Part shown: piece after piece, positions 6,534 to 41,037 of the stretch
Numbering within the stretch: the first letter of the stretch is position 1
Layout: every line of letters starts with the position of its first letter
Sequence record: NC_014792.1
DNA length: 64,000 nucleotides
DNA from: Escherichia phage vB_EcoM_VR7
Direction: 5' to 3' (one strand)
The notes under the pieces: generated by a model
Told to the model about the DNA's origin: nothing
Databases searched by the model: none
The model's input: the letters and a program-made list of their open reading frames with translations, nothing else
Made by a program: the position numbers and the translations under genes

Positions 6534-6564
6534 TTTGTTTTCCTCATCAGTAGTTGATGGGATA

Positions 6565-6594
6565 ATGATACATCATTCAAAGGGGCTTGTACAC
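6565..6594 (-). promoter_or_regulatory. Early-type promoter (GTGTACA ... TATCAT) overlapping a GGGG/CCCC hairpin
   Basis: Minus sense AAAGGGGTGTACAAGCCCCTTTGAATGATGTATCATTATCCCATCAACTACTG; cassette repeated elsewhere. Confidence 0.4.
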
Positions 6595-10740: not shown

Positions 10741-11729
10741 TTCAGCAGCTCCAGAGCCTGTTCCAGTTTATCCAGACGATTGGTTGATTCTTCCCAAAGT
10801 CGCTTGGCTTTTGTATAATCTTCAGTTGCCTTTTTATTAACAGCAAGAGCTTCATTATACGCTGTTTCCAGGGCAACAATTTCAGGCGCTTTTTGTTTCA
10901 CTGGCTCATTATTCAGATTATCAATCAGGTCTTCAAGGGTAGTAACTTCTTGCGGTGCATTCATAATTTCCTCACTTTTCTTTTTATAGATTTCTGCATC
11001 AGTTGGCTGCTTTGCGCATTTAACTTCGCGTAATGTCACCACAATTTTCCAACCTTTCCAACCATGAGAACTGGTGATAGGGTCAACTTTAATTTTTTCA
11101 ACAGTGCGCATATAATTAAGTGCACACTGCAGCTGATGAGTGAGCGTGCATGCAACATCAAGATACTTTTTGATATTTTCAGGTGTAGCCTCTGGAGTAT
11201 AGAACTCATGCTTAACTGTAATAATTACCTGATTTTCACCAGAATCTTTAACCTTTACCATGTTCTCAGCCAGATGGTAGATAGTGCGAAAATCACCGCC
11301 CATCAATTTTGTTGCTGATTTTATGATAGACATTTTGTTATTTCTGAATTCACGCGCCCAACTGTTTGCAAATTCAGAAACAGTATAGCCTTGTTTATCA
11401 AGATAGTATTTTTCAACATCACCAAACCAATGATACCCAATTGTACCTTTACCACGTCTGGATTCAACACCAAACTTATTAAGAAGGTCTTTATTAACCA
11501 GGCATGCCAGGACTCGGGAACCTTTAAAAGTTTTCTTGATATCAGCATTACCAGCACGACTCGCAATAGTCGCGATGTCTTTCTTAAAACGACCGGATGC
11601 AACAATCGATGCGTCAATCTGATTTAACCAGAAATTGATAATCGAAAGGATAGCCGATTCACCTATTAATGGTTTTACTTTTGCATCGATAGTGGTGTTA
11701 AAGGCCTGGATATATTCGTTACGTGTCAT
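10737..11729 (-). CDS. Hypothetical protein with C-terminal coiled coil
   Basis: 330 aa; heptad-like C-terminus ...[13 protein letters not shown]. Confidence 0.55.
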   Translation of the reverse strand: MTRNEYIQAFNTTIDAKVKPLIGESAILSIINFWLNQIDASIVASGRFKKDIATIASRAGNADIKKTFKGSRVLACLVNKDLLNKFGVESRRGKGTIGYHWFGDVEKYYLDKQGYTVSEFANSWAREFRNNKMSIIKSATKLMGGDFRTIYHLAENMVKVKDSGENQVIITVKHEFYTPEATPENIKKYLDVACTLTHQLQCALNYMRTVEKIKVDPITSSHGWKGWKIVVTLREVKCAKQPTDAEIYKKKSEEIMNAPQEVTTLEDLIDNLNNEPVKQKAPEIVALETAYNEALAVNKKATEDYTKAKRLWEESTNRLDKLEQALELLK

Positions 11730-11756
11730 AGTGTTCTCCTCATAAAGTAGGAATTC

Positions 11757-11786
11757 ATTATACTCCCTCCATCCTTGGAAGTAAAC
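11757..11786 (-). promoter_or_regulatory. Early-type promoter (GTTTAC, 18 nt, TATAAT)
   Basis: Minus sense GTTTACTTCCAAGGATGGAGGGAGTATAAT then GAGGAG RBS and ATG. Confidence 0.45.
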
Positions 11787-11787
11787 A

Positions 11788-12669
11788 TTATTTTAATGCT
11801 TTGATTGCAGCTTGCAATTTATTGCGTTGCGTTTCCATGTTCTTGATGCGATTCAGGACATCCTGGATACCCTTCTTCTCATCTTCAATCAGACCATTTA
11901 AGCGGTTGACTGATTCCTTGATAGCATCCGCATGATAGCTCTCAATAGGCTTCATTGTTGGGTTAAAGATTTCAAGAGAGCTGGATGGCTGGACATTCCA
12001 TTTGTACATATTTTTAACGTCCAGTGGTGAAATTTTGGTCTGGTCATAAGATTTAAATTGACCTGCAAATGCTGGGCCATATGCCGCAGTAAGGGTACGT
12101 TCCATTTCTGGTTCCTTTTTCTCTTGATAAGGAGCATAAGACAAAAGATATTCTTTAGTTAATTTAATATCAATGGCTATAGTTTTAAGGAATTTTTCCG
12201 TTTGATGGATATAATTTGTATCTTCATCAAACGTGTATGATTCAACAGCATGGCGCATATAAAACAGCGCAATACCCATAACCTCTTTAAAGTTATGACA
12301 AAGAGCAACATCGCCCTTGGTGGTTGGTTTGAACTTAATCTGTACACCATCATTCTTGATATTAATAATCAAGTTATTGGAGTTGAAATTATAGTTCTTG
12401 ATGTTAATCGGAGCTTTGCGAATACGAAATCCGCCGGCCAGAATTTCCTTGATACTCTTACGAACCGTGGCACCAAACAAAAACGCTGGGCGGCGGCAAT
12501 AATCATTCAGAGAGTTAATTCTTACAATACGTTGGCCATACCCCTGGGTAGCAGAACCTGATTTGATTTTACCAAAGTTAACCAAAGAATTCATTGCGAT
12601 AAGACGAGCCACACGACCGTCATGTGGTTCATAACTACTAGCATATTCAGCGCGAGTTTTAATTTTCAT
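11788..12669 (-). CDS. Hypothetical protein with C-terminal coiled coil
   Basis: Track ORF 11788..12705 trimmed to Met at 12669 to avoid overlap; ends ...RNKLQAAIKALK. Confidence 0.5.
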   Translation of the reverse strand: MKIKTRAEYASSYEPHDGRVARLIAMNSLVNFGKIKSGSATQGYGQRIVRINSLNDYCRRPAFLFGATVRKSIKEILAGGFRIRKAPINIKNYNFNSNNLIINIKNDGVQIKFKPTTKGDVALCHNFKEVMGIALFYMRHAVESYTFDEDTNYIHQTEKFLKTIAIDIKLTKEYLLSYAPYQEKKEPEMERTLTAAYGPAFAGQFKSYDQTKISPLDVKNMYKWNVQPSSSLEIFNPTMKPIESYHADAIKESVNRLNGLIEDEKKGIQDVLNRIKNMETQRNKLQAAIKALK

Positions 12670-18993: not shown

Positions 18994-19015
18994 TGTATTC
19001 TCCTCAGTAGTTGAT

Positions 19016-19054
19016 GGGATAATAGTACACCCTTTTGATGAGGATGTAAACCCC
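19016..19054 (-). promoter_or_regulatory. Early promoter-leader cassette
   Basis: Minus sense GGGGTTTACATCCTCATCAAAAGGGTGTACTATTATCCCATCAACTACTG. Confidence 0.45.
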
Positions 19055-24727: not shown

Positions 24728-25027
24728 TTAAAAAGAACCAGAGCCTTTAATTGTGTTCTGGCGACCTTTATTTTCGAATTCAGAATGGTCGATTTCGTAT
24801 GCTTGTGCTACGCCAAAGGCCTTTTTAACTTTAGCTAAAGAACCTTTAGATGTAACAATATTAAAAGTATTGCCTTTGGTAAAATCAACCAAATCCACTT
24901 GCACACCCTGTTTACCGAGGCTTGCTACAATAGCATCAACATATTGTTGGTCTAAATTGCCTTGAACCCCAATTTGAAATGCTTTAGGAACTTTGGCTTC
25001 TGTGATAAATTCTTGATAAGTTAACAT
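24728..25027 (-). CDS. Internal-protein-like (capsid-targeting-sequence-bearing) protein
   Basis: 99 aa; N-terminus MLTYQEFITE matches T4 IP capsid-targeting sequence. Confidence 0.55.
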   Translation of the reverse strand: MLTYQEFITEAKVPKAFQIGVQGNLDQQYVDAIVASLGKQGVQVDLVDFTKGNTFNIVTSKGSLAKVKKAFGVAQAYEIDHSEFENKGRQNTIKGSGSF

Positions 25028-25056
25028 TATACACTATCCCATCATAAAGTAAACAG

Positions 25057-25320
25057 TTAAGCTTTACCGCCAGAAACAATACCAAAGGTCTCAAAGTCCC
25101 ATTCAATATCGTCAACATCAACTTTCTTACCAGCAACCACAAATGCGATTTCGCGGCGTTTTGCATAGGTAACAATTTCTTTGCCATCGCCGCCAAAGAA
25201 AGAATAACCATTGCGCTTCATGGTGCCAAAGTCTTCAGCATCACCAGCGAAGGCACGGACTTTAAAGGAGCCAGCAGGAGCTTTAGCAGATTCAGTAATA
25301 AATTCTTGATAAGTTTTCAT
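25057..25320 (-). CDS. Internal-protein-like (CTS-bearing) protein
   Basis: 87 aa; N-terminus MKTYQEFITES. Confidence 0.6.
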   Translation of the reverse strand: MKTYQEFITESAKAPAGSFKVRAFAGDAEDFGTMKRNGYSFFGGDGKEIVTYAKRREIAFVVAGKKVDVDDIEWDFETFGIVSGGKA

Positions 25321-25333
25321 AATGTCTCTTTAG

Positions 25334-25648
25334 TTAAGCTTTAGGGAAATCGCGCAAAAACGCATCATAAAGTTTATTACCAATGCGACGGAATGCTTTT
25401 GCCGCATGAACGTTATCTGGGTTTGCAATTTTAATCTGCATTACATGACTACCAGCCCATGATTTAGCTTCGTCATAATAACCTTTAATTTCTTTAATAG
25501 TCTTGCGTTTTCCACCAGGACCATCGACAGTAATTTTCCACGAACCAGTGCTTGTTTCACTTGGTGGGGTTAACTGTTCAATCCAGACATAACCACCTTC
25601 AACACGTTGTTGAGTAGATTCAGTAATAAATTCTTGATAAGTTTTCAT
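25334..25648 (-). CDS. Internal-protein-like (CTS-bearing) protein
   Basis: Track ORF trimmed to MKTYQEFITEST start at 25648; upstream codons are translated promoter. Confidence 0.55.
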   Translation of the reverse strand: MKTYQEFITESTQQRVEGGYVWIEQLTPPSETSTGSWKITVDGPGGKRKTIKEIKGYYDEAKSWAGSHVMQIKIANPDNVHAAKAFRRIGNKLYDAFLRDFPKA

Positions 25649-25678: not shown

Positions 25679-25705
25679 ATTATACAACCTTTTTAGTTAA
25701 GCGTA
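25679..25705 (-). promoter_or_regulatory. Middle-type promoter (CGCTTAA, 12 nt, TATAAT)
   Basis: Minus sense TACGCTTAACTAAAAAGGTTGTATAAT. Confidence 0.45.
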
Positions 25706-26113
25706 CACAGCTTTCCCATAGTATTTGTACCAGGTAGGCTTTTGAGAAATTTTCTCATTCAGTCTGGATTGACTGATTTCAATTGACCAGATTGATGGTT
25801 GATAATCATTCTTCCATTCATCAGGAATATCATTTAAATCTTGGGTAGAAATATCTTTTATATTAAACCCTCGCTTTAAACATTCAGCAATAAGTTCTTG
25901 ATGACGGTTTTTAAGGAACAAAAGCTTATCATAAAAGAAGGTGACATGACCAGTCCCTAAAAGAAAAGATGATGGGATTTTAAAGTCAGACACCTTTTTA
26001 CCATTTTGCACATGCTTACGAACAGCACCAAACACGCGAGGAAGCTCACGGTATTCAGCCATAAGGTGTTGGTCAGCAAGTTCAGATACCAGGGTTAAAT
26101 TAATGCGAGTCAT
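25697..26113 (-). CDS. denV: Endonuclease V (pyrimidine-dimer DNA glycosylase) DenV
   Basis: 138 aa; [34 protein letters not shown]...[13 protein letters not shown] matches remembered T4 DenV. Confidence 0.95.
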
Positions 26114-26139: not shown

Positions 26140-26169
26140 ATTATAACCCTATCGTTTGGAGATGTAAAC
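26140..26169 (-). promoter_or_regulatory. Early promoter (GTTTACA, 17 nt, TATAAT) upstream of denV
   Basis: Minus sense GTTTACATCTCCAAACGATAGGGTTATAATGACCC. Confidence 0.5.
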
Positions 26170-26657
26170 TAATAAGCGTCAAAAGTTCCAGTACGGAAAG
26201 TTTCAATAACTCGTTTGGCCCGGTTTGGAGTCTGGACTTTATACCATCTTGAGTCCGCCAGTTCCTTAGCAGCAGCTTCCCACGATTTGGCCTTGAGCAA
26301 TCGCAGCCCCTTAGGAAAACCAGCAACACCAGCAACACCCATTTGGAATACCATATTAATGAGTGCGCAACGACGAACTTCATCCAGTACATCATAAACA
26401 GGTTTTAAGACAGGATGTTTCAAGATTCCGGCTTTAGCTTTTTCGACCGAACGATTAAACAATGTTTCGGCTTCGTGCTGGGTTATACGGCCATTACAGA
26501 CGCGACCCATGAGCTTGTCGAGCTCGGCACGAGCAACATCTTTCGATGGGTTCTTAGTTATCAGTTGCCCGATACCGATGGTCCAATAACCTTCGGTATC
26601 TTTATACAAATCCAACTTACAACCTTCATCTATGCGTAACATTTCGAATATATTCAT
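26169..26657 (-). CDS. e: Lysozyme (endolysin) e
   Basis: 162 aa; [12 protein letters not shown]...[14 protein letters not shown]...[25 protein letters not shown] matches T4 lysozyme. Confidence 0.95.
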
Positions 26658-35650: not shown

Positions 35651-35836
35651 TTACTCACCTTTAGACATTTTATCCATAACGAAAGAGATTGAACCAATTA
35701 AGAATGCAACTACTAAAGAGATTATATTCTCAGAAGTTGAAAGCATATTCAACATAAAGCCAGCAAACATGCTAAAACCAAAAGCGGTAACAGCAACAAG
35801 GGCAGTAACATTTCTAATTAATTCGCAACGTTTCAT
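35651..35836 (-). CDS. Small membrane protein
   Basis: 61 aa, two hydrophobic helices; follows promoter cassette. Confidence 0.4.
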   Translation of the reverse strand: MKRCELIRNVTALVAVTAFGFSMFAGFMLNMLSTSENIISLVVAFLIGSISFVMDKMSKGE

Positions 35837-35864
35837 TTTATTCTCCTCATTAGTTGATGGGATA

Positions 35865-35895
35865 ATTATACACTATCCCATATCTAAAAGTACAC
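35865..35895 (-). promoter_or_regulatory. Early promoter-leader cassette
   Basis: Minus sense GTGTACTTTTAGATATGGGATAGTGTATAATTATCCCATCAACTAATGAGGAG. Confidence 0.5.
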
Positions 35896-36129
35896 TTATT
35901 TTTTACGGAAAATTGATTTATACTGTTTAGCCCATTTCTCGATAACTTCTGCTGGACCCTGGATAACAAAATAGTCCCCAAACTCTTCACCGCCGAGCTG
36001 ACCGTAATTATCTAAGGCGTCGCGGAGAGTTCCATAAGGCATTTCGCCCATTTTATCTTTCTTGCCGGTGTAAATGAATTGCACTTTAACATCAGCAGTT
36101 TCATTAATAAATTCTTGATAAGTTTTCAT
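35896..36129 (-). CDS. Internal-protein-like (CTS-bearing) protein
   Basis: 77 aa; N-terminus MKTYQEFINET. Confidence 0.6.
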   Translation of the reverse strand: MKTYQEFINETADVKVQFIYTGKKDKMGEMPYGTLRDALDNYGQLGGEEFGDYFVIQGPAEVIEKWAKQYKSIFRKK

Positions 36130-36154
36130 GTTGTCTCCAGTAGTTGATGGGATA

Positions 36155-36184
36155 ATTATACTGCAGTTATCCCATCACGTACAC
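36155..36184 (-). promoter_or_regulatory. Early promoter-leader cassette
   Basis: Plus strand gttgatgggataattatactgcagttatcccatcacgtacac. Confidence 0.5.
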
Positions 36185-36462
36185 TAAATTTTTGTATATT
36201 GTCCAGCTTTAACTTTTTTCAGTTCACGAGGGCTTACCGCGTAAGTGAATGGAGCATTCCAGGAAGAACTGACTTTGTAACCTTTAGTCAACATCATTGC
36301 TGAAACTTTCTTGTTATCAGGACCGTTTTCGCCTTTAACAAGAAACAACTCAAATGCGCCACCATCAACCGGTTTGGCCTTAACCATCAGATGTCCTTTC
36401 AGGTCTTCCAGCATATCCGGGTGACTAATTGATTCGTTAATAAATTCTTGATAAGTTTTCAT
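36184..36462 (-). CDS. Internal-protein-like (CTS-bearing) protein
   Basis: 92 aa; N-terminus MKTYQEFINES. Confidence 0.6.
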   Translation of the reverse strand: MKTYQEFINESISHPDMLEDLKGHLMVKAKPVDGGAFELFLVKGENGPDNKKVSAMMLTKGYKVSSSWNAPFTYAVSPRELKKVKAGQYTKI

Positions 36463-36487
36463 GTTGTCTCCAGTAGTTGATGGGATA

Positions 36488-36517
36488 ATTATACTGCAGT
36501 TATCCCATCGTGTACAT
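36488..36517 (-). promoter_or_regulatory. Early promoter-leader cassette
   Basis: Plus strand gttgatgggataattatactgcagttatcccatcgtgtacat. Confidence 0.5.
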
Positions 36518-36816
36518 TACATTTTTGAACCGCGAATCACGCCATAAGCTGCGAAGTCGTCAGTGATGTTCTTAGGGGTGTTTTTACCAGTTTCAATATA
36601 TGCGATGCTGGATTTCTGACCAAATGAGGTAATTTTATTATAGTTAGAGTCAAGGAAAGTATAACCATTTTTACGCAGCTGGTCAAAGTCTTCAGCGTCG
36701 CCTTTACCTTTGAAGTCAACCCATTTGTATGTGTTTTTCTTCTGAAGGCCCAGAGGCCAGGTTTTTGCTTCTGCCAGGTAATTATTTTCTACCAAAAATT
36801 CGTGGAGCGTTTGCAT
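36517..36816 (-). CDS. Internal-protein-like (divergent CTS) protein
   Basis: 99 aa; N-terminus MQTLHEFLVEN. Confidence 0.5.
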   Translation of the reverse strand: MQTLHEFLVENNYLAEAKTWPLGLQKKNTYKWVDFKGKGDAEDFDQLRKNGYTFLDSNYNKITSFGQKSSIAYIETGKNTPKNITDDFAAYGVIRGSKM

Positions 36817-36824
36817 TTGAAATC

Positions 36825-37097
36825 CTATTTTAGATAAATTGCATATTTTTTATAACCAGCTGTCTCATGGCGGAGACCCTTGTCATTGGCAAAACGCTCA
36901 ATGTTATTAATTTGGTTCTGGTCAAGTTCAGAGATGTCAAACGCGAAAAAGTTGCGTTTGTTACCAATTGTTATATGGTCAGTCAAGTCAATGCTATACA
37001 AGTGATTGATATTGTCAATCATAGCTTTGACTGCTTTACTAATTTTTACTTCTTCATTCAGTTGGGACTCGTTGAAAAGTTCATTAAAAGTTTTCAT
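36825..37097 (-). CDS. Internal-protein-like (divergent CTS) protein
   Basis: 90 aa; N-terminus MKTFNELFNES. Confidence 0.5.
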   Translation of the reverse strand: MKTFNELFNESQLNEEVKISKAVKAMIDNINHLYSIDLTDHITIGNKRNFFAFDISELDQNQINNIERFANDKGLRHETAGYKKYAIYLK

Positions 37098-37105
37098 AAG
37101 AAACC

Positions 37106-37438
37106 TTATTTATACAGTTTAGCCAGTTCTTTACGTCCGCGAGCAGACATAATGAATTGTTCATCACCAATTTTGAAATAAGCCATACCACCGTCAACAG
37201 CGATGCCAATTTCTTTAGTACCTTCTTTGCCTTTCCACTTGCCACCAGATTTTAGGACAGCTTCAACCGCAGCTTTGGAATATTTGGACGTTTGAAAACG
37301 TTCATTACCAATCTGAAAGAAAACACCATCTGCATTTTTGGATAAACCAAATTTCAGAGAGCCTTCACTATCATCAATTGATTTGGTCTCATTGATGGCG
37401 GATTCGGCTAAAAACTCGTTATAAGTCTTGATGTTCAT
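37106..37438 (-). CDS. Internal-protein-like (divergent CTS) protein
   Basis: Track ORF trimmed to MNIKTYNEFLAES start at 37438 after GGAG RBS. Confidence 0.5.
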   Translation of the reverse strand: MNIKTYNEFLAESAINETKSIDDSEGSLKFGLSKNADGVFFQIGNERFQTSKYSKAAVEAVLKSGGKWKGKEGTKEIGIAVDGGMAYFKIGDEQFIMSARGRKELAKLYK

Positions 37439-37468
37439 TTTAACTCCGTTTGTTCGTTGGTGTAGGAA

Positions 37469-37498
37469 CATAATACTGCACCTACACTCATTTGTACA

Positions 37499-37499
<1 letters not shown>
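37469..37499 (-). promoter_or_regulatory. Early promoter (GTGTACAAA ... TATTAT)
   Basis: Minus sense GTGTACAAATGAGTGTAGGTGCAGTATTATG. Confidence 0.5.
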
Positions 37500-38189
<690 letters not shown>

Positions 38190-39547: not shown

Positions 39548-40219
39548 TTATTTTATTAATGTGTTAAGTCTTAGCTTAGTCATAAACGGATAACGTTCCA
39601 ACATTGGCTTTACCCAGTATCGAGGATGCAATTCCTTTTTATATGCTAGGACCAACTCTCGAGCTTGCTCGACGGTATCAACTCCGAAGTTTTTACACAT
39701 TTCTTGCCTATCTTTTTCCCACCGGCGCTTTGATAATTCTGCGTTGACTTTCGTAAATGTATCATTCTTTCGGTTGTGTTTTTTGCCCGTTGTTGGGCTG
39801 TAATGTCTTCCTTTAACGAATCCTTCTGGAACGTCTTCCCACGGAAATAATTTTATCGATTTGACACCATTATTAAAATAAACTTTTCCCGTTTGACTTT
39901 TCGAAATGTTGTTGGCATGTTTACGTCTTAACCAACCAAATAATTTATTGTTATGCCGTTTATGATTTTTTGAATTTTGTGCCATTGTTGTTGCGGCAAA
40001 ACTTAACCCAGGATGTGTGGGATATATTTTAACCAGTAATTGATGCGCGACATAATGTTCTTCGGGTGTTAAATTAACCAGATTATCTGGGTCATTGGAA
40101 CCGCCCATACATTTTGGAATGATGTGATGAGATTCTTTATATGAAATCAGGACCCTGTTACGGGCCCTTTCAATTAACGATGAATATATAAACTGATAAT
40201 TCAAAGTGAATTTCTCCAA
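39548..40219 (-). CDS. HNH homing-endonuclease-like protein inserted between genes 3 and 2
   Basis: 223 aa; [27 protein letters not shown] (HNH motif). Confidence 0.6.
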
Positions 40220-41037
40220 ACTTTTTGTGCAGAGAATTTTTTGCCTTTGCTGTAAAAAGCTTGCAATGGAAGCATAACAACGTTTGCCCAGTCGCTGGGC
40301 TTGATTTCAGTGATAGTACCTTTTATATTACCAGGTATATATGCTTTAATCATCTGGTCAGCCCCTTTAAATCCCTTCACCTTTGACCAATCAATCTTCA
40401 GATGAGTCTTGTTCGTAATCGTAGGAGTATTAGCATATTGCTTAAGCAGTTCCTCAAGGAACTCTTGACGTGCCTTCGGTGGAATATAGTGCAAGTTCAA
40501 ACCATACATCAAATTGTGCTTACCTAACCCAAGATAAATGATTAACGGATATTTGTCCCAGTACGGAAGAGTATCCTTATGCTTTGCATCATAGATATAA
40601 GCATAAATCTTACCTGGTTGAGGTTTAGCCGTTACGTGTCCTCTGACAGCTTTCTTAATTGTCTCTGCGAACCATCTGGCAGATTTGGTGTTGCTTGCAG
40701 CGCCTTCGTTAGCAATCTTATCTCTTATGCTCTTTCTAAAGCTATTCACCATTATTAGCTGGCGTTCAGCCTTCGTAAGTTTACCAGCAGGTTTCTTTTT
40801 GAGTTTGGATACTTTATAAGCAGTCTGAATTCTCGAATGATATCTTGACATGCTTTTGGTAAAGGTTGAATAGTTGATTCCTTTCTCTTCAGCAAACTTT
40901 TTCGAGGTCATTCCCTTTTCTTTTGCTGTATAAAATTCAACCCCTATCTCAACCCATTGTTGTTCGGATTTACTGGGTTTCGGACCCGGTTTATCTGCAG
41001 ATTCATTGATAAATGTAAAAATACTCATCCTTTCCAT
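40201..41037 (-). CDS. 2: gp2 DNA-end protector protein
   Basis: 278 aa, basic; synteny 3-2-4. Confidence 0.7.

Follow-up and report, generated by a model that had tools for sequence, protein, structure and literature searches.

What are the five small genes that lie in tandem beside gene 57B of Escherichia phage vB_EcoM_VR7, each beginning with a similar short peptide, and what would their products do? The genes lie in a 64,000-nucleotide stretch of sequence record NC_014792.1 (hereafter the window, to whose positions all coordinates refer unless another record is named). An initial annotation, made from the letters alone, had proposed that they encode proteins of the T4 internal protein (IP) type, which carry an N-terminal capsid-targeting sequence (CTS). 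Our analysis suggests, with a probability that we put at roughly 80%, that the ipI locus of this T4-like Gaprivervirus holds the genes as a hyperplastic array of IP cassettes, and that their products are packaged, processed, injected and likely active against host defence. What was initially observed was confirmed, and its interpretation held up to the extent that computation can show; the system itself is already known, the phenomenon since 1994, and the genes have been deposited and partly annotated in GenBank. The additions made here are the recognition of the second and fifth genes (g2 and g5) as tag-bearing internal proteins, the precise recombination boundaries and the ORFan status of g2. 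Further additions are a predicted PC4-like fold for g5 and the occurrence of a large IP arsenal together with a suspected DNA modification in one lineage.

All five tandem open reading frames (ORFs) were confirmed with the positions and N-termini first given for them. They were numbered g1 to g5 in plus-strand order, although all are on the minus strand, and are listed here with the two genes that flank them.

35896-36129, minus strand: g1, 77 aa, N-terminus MKTYQEFINET, ip6 family.
36184-36462, minus strand: g2, 92 aa, N-terminus MKTYQEFINES, VR7 ORF153-like.
36517-36816, minus strand: g3, 99 aa, N-terminus MQTLHEFLVEN, VR7 gp154-like.
36825-37097, minus strand: g4, 90 aa, N-terminus MKTFNELFNES, ip9 family.
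37106-37438, minus strand: g5, 110 aa, N-terminus MNIKTYNEFLAES, VR7 gp156-like.
35651-35836, minus strand: trna.4, the conserved downstream flank of the array (PHROG 1692; VR20 and T4 annotation).
37499-37954, minus strand: 57B, which is Acb1 (anti-CBASS phosphodiesterase family), the conserved upstream flank (Pfam PF23474, E 1.2e-59).

The array occupies the ipI slot because the T4 order around trna.4 and 57B (trna.4-ipI-57B-57A-1-3-2-4) is identical; in the window, 57A, gene 1 and gene 3 precede 57B. The ipI-equivalent position claimed by the initial annotation was thus borne out by T4 gene order and by the Pfam match to Acb1. Aligned over its full length with Escherichia phage vB_EcoM_VR20 (Straboviridae, Tevenvirinae, Gaprivervirus), the window showed 98.9% identity. 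The VR20 annotation names g1 'ip6, internal virion protein' and g4 'ip9, internal head protein'; g3 is labelled 'internal head protein', and for g2 and g5 only 'hypothetical protein' is given. PHROGs 8111, 2667 and 7673, to which g1, g3 and g4 belong, are families of internal head or virion proteins (E 2.5e-20 for g3 to 2667 and 3e-56 for g4 to 7673), and PHROGs 15565 (g2) and 3966 (g5) are listed with function unknown. In the EAWsc9 record (PQ341120.1), the homologue of g3 (1594-1893) is labelled 'homing endonuclease' and that of g5 (2183-2515) 'profilin'. Neither label was backed by any search, and both look like spurious automated annotation.

The CTS pattern was present at 8 ORF starts among 631 candidate Met positions of the window and at none in 30 shuffles. 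All 8 starts fell into two clusters, the ipI slot and a locus adjacent to denV. The occurrence of the pattern is far beyond chance. The second cluster (24728-25648), which was absent from the initial annotation, adjoins denV (25697-26113) and e (26169-26657) and consists of three genes.

24728-25027, minus strand: B1, CTS MLTYQEFITEA.
25057-25320, minus strand: B2, CTS MKTYQEFITES, a paralogue of g3.
25334-25648, minus strand: B3, CTS MKTYQEFITES.

The tags were compared with the determinants mapped in T4. For encapsidation, residues 1-10 of IPIII are enough; targeting acts mainly through residues 4 and 7 of the CTS and processing through residues 8 and 10, and the protease gp21 cuts after the Glu of L/I-x-E, with Asp at position 10 preventing cleavage (PMC9026906). 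The tag MKTYQEFINE of g1 and g2 was a perfect fit to these determinants (Y4, F7, I8 and E10). That of g3, MQTLHEFLVE, has L4, F7, L8 and E10, that of g4, MKTFNELFNE, has F4, L7 and E10, and that of g5, MN followed by IKTYNEFLAE, fits after a two-residue offset. All five predicted proteins therefore have suitable targeting residues in positions 4 and 7, g5 with the offset. First cleavage motifs were I-N-E in g1 and g2, L-V-E in g3 and L-A-E in g5. A second L/I-x-E motif was found 5-6 residues on in g3 (L-A-E followed by A, residues 14-16), g4 (L-N-E, 13-15) and g5 (I-N-E, 15-17), and a gp21 motif with Glu at P1 is accordingly present in each array protein, in g4 through L-N-E at 13-15. These second sites recall T4 IPI, which has a 19-residue propeptide; cleavage of IPI after I-T-E is confirmed because the chain of the IPI* structure 2JUB begins at residue 20 of IPI. 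The approximately 10-residue tag initially ascribed to the T4 internal proteins does not hold for IPI with its longer propeptide. The window ends at gene 17 and does not contain the genes for gp21 and the scaffold protein gp22, both of which are present in VR20. The gp21 of VR20 matched T4 gp21 (5JBL) with an E value of 1.1e-121, almost all aligned positions being identical.

The 25-nt DNA segment coding for the CTS had been described as near-identical at each gene start. This was true of g1 and g2, whose CTS codons are the same at 30 of 33 nt and lie within a 95-nt repeat of 95% identity. It was not true of the others, since identity was 21-25 of 33 nt for g4 and g5 and 18-21 of 33 nt for g3. 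The CTS codons of B2 and B3 matched those of g1 and g2 at 30-31 of 33 nt, and these four genes have 30-33 of 33 nt in common. Despite their diverged DNA, g3, g4 and g5 keep T3, E6 and Glu10, position 4 being aromatic or Leu and position 7 F or L, which points to selection on the peptide and not to DNA hitch-hiking alone.

Each array gene joins this tag of about 10 residues to an unrelated small domain. When cleavage at the first site was assumed, the mature parts of g1 to g5 were predicted to have 67, 82, 89, 80 and 98 residues, masses of 7.7-10.7 kDa (7.7 kDa for g1) and pI values of 7.8, 9.6, 9.3, 6.8 and 9.3, respectively. No similarity among the five mature parts was found by BLASTP (E > 1 for all pairs), in agreement with the initial impression by eye that they are unrelated. 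The sole real BLASTP relationship (E 1e-12) was that of g3 with B2 of the second locus. When the five proteins were searched by sequence against Pfam, NCBIfam and PDB, nothing rose above noise. A match to ordinary structural proteins, which had been set beforehand as grounds for abandoning the proposal, was therefore not found in these three databases.

The protein g2 formed a single cluster, its own, among 5.8 billion proteins. An exhaustive HMMER search of 1.84 billion representatives returned three more matches, to proteins of 1216-2925 aa, which were rejected because they amount to 24 matched residues counted over as many as 10 repeats. Judged by these searches, g2 is a near-ORFan, sporadically present cassette. 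For g5, 11 homologue clusters were found in T4-like phages of Escherichia, Edwardsiella and Salmonella; the family is conserved at 51-72% identity, and the tag was present in 11 of 11 clusters. The two halves of g5 were homologous (hhalign probability 95%, E 4e-8), indicating an internal duplication. In the structure model of g5 (pLDDT 76, pTM 0.63), the tag formed a separate helix followed by two copies of a unit of four strands and a helix; models of the other four proteins reached a pLDDT of 53-64. The model, which is of moderate confidence, predicts a type I PC4-like (Whirly/PUR/MRP) fold for g5. Most characterised proteins with this fold bind single-stranded DNA or RNA (PMC7549692). Type I PC4-like domains (Whirly, PUR-alpha repeats I-II, trypanosome MRP1/MRP2) have 120-160 residues compared with about 98 in g5, and Pfam and PDB profile searches gave no sequence similarity of g5 to them.

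Two apparent links between families were discarded. PHROG cross-matches that link IP families at E 1e-3 to 1e-4 are limited to residues 1 to about 25 and were not accepted as homology. The homology of g5 and B3 implied by their shared PHROG 3966 was rejected in the same way, hhalign aligning the 12-residue tag only. PHROGs 3966 and 2667 group proteins that are alike solely in the 10-12-residue CTS. The shared tag glues unrelated families together, and the CTS can therefore mislead family clustering of internal proteins.

A comparison of this locus across related phages, which the initial annotation had proposed as a check, revealed turnover of whole cassettes. With 57B as the anchor, 28 IMG/VR loci were gathered and the interval from 57B to trna.4 was compared. 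These loci hold 1-5 CTS genes of at least 13 unrelated families in varying order: one gene in 13 loci, two in 8, three in 2, four in 2 and five in 1, with a single ORF lacking a recognisable tag in locus L021. The g4 family occurred in 10 of the 28. Among Gaprivervirus arrays, the order was g5-g4-ip5-g1 in VR26, g5-g4-g3-g1 in VR25, g5-g4-g3-g2-g1 in VR20 and the window, g5-g4-g3-ip5-g1' in EAWsc9 and g5-g4-g3-ip5-g2-g1' in TH44. Five genes are not the maximum, because TH44, a GenBank relative, holds six CTS genes. The gene g2 was present in VR20 and TH44 and missing from VR25 and VR26. Families also crossed between loci: four other phages have that of B1 at the ipI locus, and that of g3 is at both loci here. 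The mature parts vary between related phages, as is seen for internal proteins.

The boundaries of exchange were mapped to a 95-nt direct repeat, of which two copies with 95% identity flank g2 at a spacing of 333 nt.

36100-36194: downstream copy, with the last codons of g2, promoter, hairpin, Shine-Dalgarno sequence and the first 10 codons of g1.
36433-36527: upstream copy, with the last codons of g3, promoter, hairpin, Shine-Dalgarno sequence and the first 10 codons of g2.

VR25 differed by exactly the 333-nt g2 unit, and the alignment blocks joined on the 95-nt repeat. In VR26, where ip5 replaces g3, homology ended 8 nt into the g3 tag and resumed at the next promoter cassette. Both breakpoints lie in the repeated boundaries, showing that the exchanged module consists of promoter, address tag and payload. 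The suggestion that CTS repeats could drive cassette exchange was thus directly supported by the VR25 indel and the VR26 swap. The array probably grows, shrinks and swaps members by homologous recombination between boundary repeats, in a manner like that of the promoter-early stem-loop (PeSL) cassettes discussed below; exchange of this kind had been put forward by Repoila et al. in 1994 and in the PeSL papers, and a phage-specific IP repertoire would be the outcome of such shuffling.

Four promoter cassettes were identified in and beside the array.

36130-36183, minus strand: g1 promoter cassette; -35 (G)TGTAC, TATAAT, and GGAG before the ATG.
36463-36516, minus strand: g2 promoter cassette, a near-copy of the g1 cassette; TGTACA-17-TATAAT in the scan, 10/12.
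37439-37498, minus strand: promoter cassette of the g5-g4-g3 operon; -35 (G)TGTAC, TATTAT, GGAG; 9/12 in the scan.
35837-35895, minus strand: trna.4 promoter cassette, which closes the array; -10 and untranslated-region (UTR) sequence as in the array.

Their layout was (G)TGTAC, a spacer of 17-18 nt, TATAAT or TATTAT, and then GGAG and ATG. Spacers of 8 nt separate g5 from g4 and g4 from g3. The array therefore comprises a three-gene operon (g5-g4-g3) and two single-gene units, and three genes, namely g5, g2 and g1, do have their own early promoter cassette as had been claimed. A generic promoter scan was not significant across the region (16 sites against 10.2 +/- 3.3 expected); the promoters were assigned because of the repeated cassette and its T4 counterpart, not because of the generic scan. 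No MotA-box promoter was found in the array. A 21-nt sequence, GTATAATTATCCCATCAACTA, which comprises the -10 and the first transcribed bases, occurred in six minus-strand copies with at most 3 mismatches (0 expected).

6551-6571, minus strand: copy of GTATAATTATCCCATCAACTA.
19008-19028, minus strand: copy of GTATAATTATCCCATCAACTA.
30491-30511, minus strand: copy of GTATAATTATCCCATCAACTA.
35851-35871, minus strand: copy of GTATAATTATCCCATCAACTA.
36141-36161, minus strand: copy of GTATAATTATCCCATCAACTA.
36474-36494, minus strand: copy of GTATAATTATCCCATCAACTA.

This promoter/5'-UTR module was not confined to IP genes. At B1 of the second locus, the ATG overlaps the TATAAT of the cassette GTTTAC-17-TATAATG; with the ATG inside the -10, transcripts from that promoter would begin past the B1 start codon.

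In each cassette, the -10 was bracketed by an inverted repeat: GATGGGATAA/TTATCCCATC of 10-11 bp in the g1 and g2 cassettes, GTGTAGG/CCTACAC in the g5 cassette and ATGGGATA/TATCCCAT in the trna.4 cassette. RNA folding gave -18.1 kcal/mol and a z score of -3.5 for the g1 cassette, -3.2 for that of trna.4, and z scores of -2.0 to -3.5 for the cassettes overall. The T4 cassettes on both sides of ipI (11540-11950 of the T4 locus) have the stems TGATGAGGTA/TACCTCATCA and ATAGGGT/ACCCTAT around the -10, and further T4-like phages have other stems again in the same place, a compensatory pattern. The position of the stem is conserved and its sequence variable, which suggests that the structure itself is selected. 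Repeats of this kind were also seen at other early-type promoters of the window, e.g., at 26169 and 14388. A terminator scan found no terminator-like site at the cassette hairpins, and these do not look like intrinsic terminators because their stems are A/T-rich and they have no U-tract. The hairpin may serve in RNA end protection, processing, recombination or promoter control.

By analogy with T4, the tag would dock the proteins on the gp22 scaffolding core and bring them into the prohead, where the gp21 protease would cut it off after Glu10; in g3, g4 and g5 the second L/I-x-E site could be used in addition or in its place. The mature proteins would stay in the head with the DNA and then be ejected into the next host before phage gene expression. 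Once there, their most likely action would be to neutralise those host factors by which incoming DNA is attacked. This role is considered the most likely for g1 to g5 because T4 Ip1, Ip2 and Ip3 each block one GmrSD type IV restriction subtype (PMC12373910). The window has 8 CTS genes, and relatives have as many as 6 at the ipI locus; the arsenal is among the largest seen here.

Several points weigh against this reading. Ten further ip genes showed no new inhibition when set against GmrSD variants (PMC12373910), and none of g1 to g5 resembled T4 IPI, IPII or IPIII beyond the tag by BLASTP. Nor was a relationship of g1 to g5 to the GmrSD inhibitors IPI*, Ip2 and Ip3 found by sequence or fold. 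Gaprivervirus phages lack an annotated dCMP hydroxymethylase and glucosyltransferases, and a modification of another kind is suspected (PMC8056088). In VR20, gene 42, alpha-gt and beta-gt are not annotated at the T4 positions, and the gp56 dCTPase is kept. Without annotated genes for hydroxymethylcytosine or glucosylation, the GmrSD precedent may not transfer, and the targets need not be GmrSD. VR20 also has a hypothetical protein of 167 aa between uvsX and imm. In the tags, residues 8-10 of g4 are F-N-E, a non-canonical site with Phe instead of Leu or Ile at P3, and the tag of g5 is preceded by two extra N-terminal residues. Only early-type promoters were evident, apart from a single late-promoter core 9 nt before the g4 ATG. 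This core, TATAAATA (37114-37107, minus strand), is formed by the Tyr-Lys-stop codons of g5; it is the only one in the array and looks too close to the g4 ATG to be useful. A near-copy, TATAAATC, lies within the last codons of g1. Finally, the literature consulted, which did not cover the VR7 and JS98 papers, contained no virion proteomics and no N-terminal data on phages of this group.

It is possible, though doubtful, that the proteins are packaged and processed but act mainly in the virion or on phage DNA and not by inhibiting specific host defence enzymes. They could neutralise charge, organise DNA, help head assembly or protect entering DNA. The mature parts of g2, g3 and g5 are basic (pI 9.3-9.6), and the putative PC4-like fold of g5 would place it among proteins that are mostly nucleic-acid binders (PMC7549692). 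Further, the g5 family spans Escherichia, Edwardsiella and Salmonella phages, a broader range than expected of a strain-specific inhibitor, and T4 IPIII mutants are slower at head assembly (PMC9026906). However, g1 and g4 are near neutral (pI 7.8 and 6.8), some proteins with a g5-like fold work by protein-protein contacts (SsgB, ErpC), and each of the three T4 internal proteins now has a defence target (PMC12373910). The extreme presence/absence turnover and the unrelated folds at a single locus are an arms-race signature and not that of a structural requirement. For the basic members, g5 foremost, DNA binding or protection is a serious alternative. A lineage without the known hydroxymethylcytosine and glucosylation genes yet with so large an arsenal also suggests a further reading, which we think unlikely: the internal proteins would target defences other than GmrSD, and g5, with its internal duplication and putative Whirly/PUR-like fold, would be an injected single-stranded nucleic-acid binder that might shield the entering DNA or sequester a nucleic-acid signal or guide of a host defence. 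If this were true, g5 would found a functional class not seen before in the internal proteins of phages, beside acb1 in one counter-defence island.

It is still less probable that some of the five are not virion proteins at all, their shared 5' end being a by-product of recombination and their early products acting in the producing cell only. The recognisable promoters are all of the early sigma-70 type, the tags of g4 and g5 are atypical, g2 and g5 are annotated merely as hypothetical, and the promoter/UTR cassette also stands ahead of non-IP genes such as trna.4. By contrast, the tag peptide was kept in g3, g4 and g5 at a DNA identity of only 18-25 of 33 nt, and every homologue cluster of g5 has the tag. 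Moreover, T4 ipI has a similar sigma-70-type cassette with a hairpin bracketing the -10, yet IPI is packaged. That the array is a recent local amplification, its tandem duplicates since diverged, and not a set of independently acquired cassettes was rejected as very improbable: the 95-nt repeat around g2, the duplication within g5 and the g3 paralogue at the second locus would fit it, but the mature parts have no pairwise BLASTP similarity, the g5 family and B3 align in the tag alone when their profiles are compared, and the cassette units pre-date the array because the same families occur singly or in other orders in distant phages.

Other features of the window lie outside the two IP loci. 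The product of gene 2, the DNA end protector (40201-41037, minus strand), shares with T4 gp2, which starts with MAIFQIINESTPQ, a CTS-like motif of the form hydrophobic-x-x-I-N-E, with S after the Glu. With its gp21-type I-x-E site, this motif may perhaps target or process this low-copy head-internal protein. An ORF of 223 aa between genes 3 and 2 (39548-40219, minus strand) matched Pfam HNH with 21.4 bits, exactly at the cutoff, and only an 85-nt gap was seen at this site in VR20; the ORF is probably a homing-endonuclease insertion. A protein with a MUG113/T5orf172 (GIY-YIG-like) domain (33997-34551, minus strand) lies beside two tRNA genes (34574-34726), which were all that an Rfam scan found. 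In the region matching 33997-34726, T4 carries the homing endonuclease segB.

Internal proteins are, to our knowledge, unique among phage counter-defence factors in being present as soon as the DNA enters the cell. The eight CTS genes of one phage are a ready-made panel for new pairs of defence and anti-defence, and the module of promoter, tag and payload explains how such panels are reshuffled. Current understanding is unchanged, and a textbook case is confirmed. Three leads are offered: the ORFan cassette g2, the putative nucleic-acid binder g5, and the DNA modification of the lineage and hence the targets of its internal proteins.

The array proteins have the tag MKT(Y/F)xEF(I/L)xE, the small size and the non-conserved mature parts of T4 IPI, IPII and IPIII. 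In T4, these are encoded in the ipI slot between trna.4 and 57B and at a second locus near denV and e (ipII and ipIII), an arrangement mirrored by the two CTS loci here. However, T4 has one gene at the ipI locus and the window has five, with mature sequences unrelated to those of IPI, IPII and IPIII. The Dar proteins of P1 are packaged anti-restriction proteins. Ejection proteins of phiKZ and SPN3US are loaded into the head, where the prohead protease often cuts them after Glu, and enter the host together with the DNA (PMC9026906). Both the Dar and the phiKZ/SPN3US proteins are larger than those of the array, have other targeting signals and show no sequence relationship to them. Polymorphism of the T-even IP locus with a shared leader was described by Repoila et al. 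in 1994, as cited in PMC12373910, PMC3012670 and PMC4122927. As far as these citing papers relate it, this is the same phenomenon as the present array, in which g1 (ip6) and g4 (ip9) were already named.

The closest parallel to the cassettes is given by PeSLs, the promoter-early stem-loop mobile cassettes of T4-type phages (Arbiol 2010; Comeau 2014; PMC2839356, PMC4122927). They have a repeated intergenic sigma-70-type promoter and stem-loop around small non-essential ORFs, as here, and repeat-bounded indels are shared, the 333-nt g2 unit paralleling ORFan192 of RB49. A repeated promoter, a stem-loop of 7-11 bp and indels or replacements bounded by cassettes were all observed in the array. Compared with the T4/PST consensus TTTACW-N17-TAYWAT (PMC4122927), the -10 of the cassette promoters fits and the -35 has G at its second position (TGTAC). 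Unlike in PeSLs, the A/T-rich stem, which has no U-tract, brackets the -10 hexamer, and the repeat extends into coding sequence to take in the first 10 codons, that is, the CTS.

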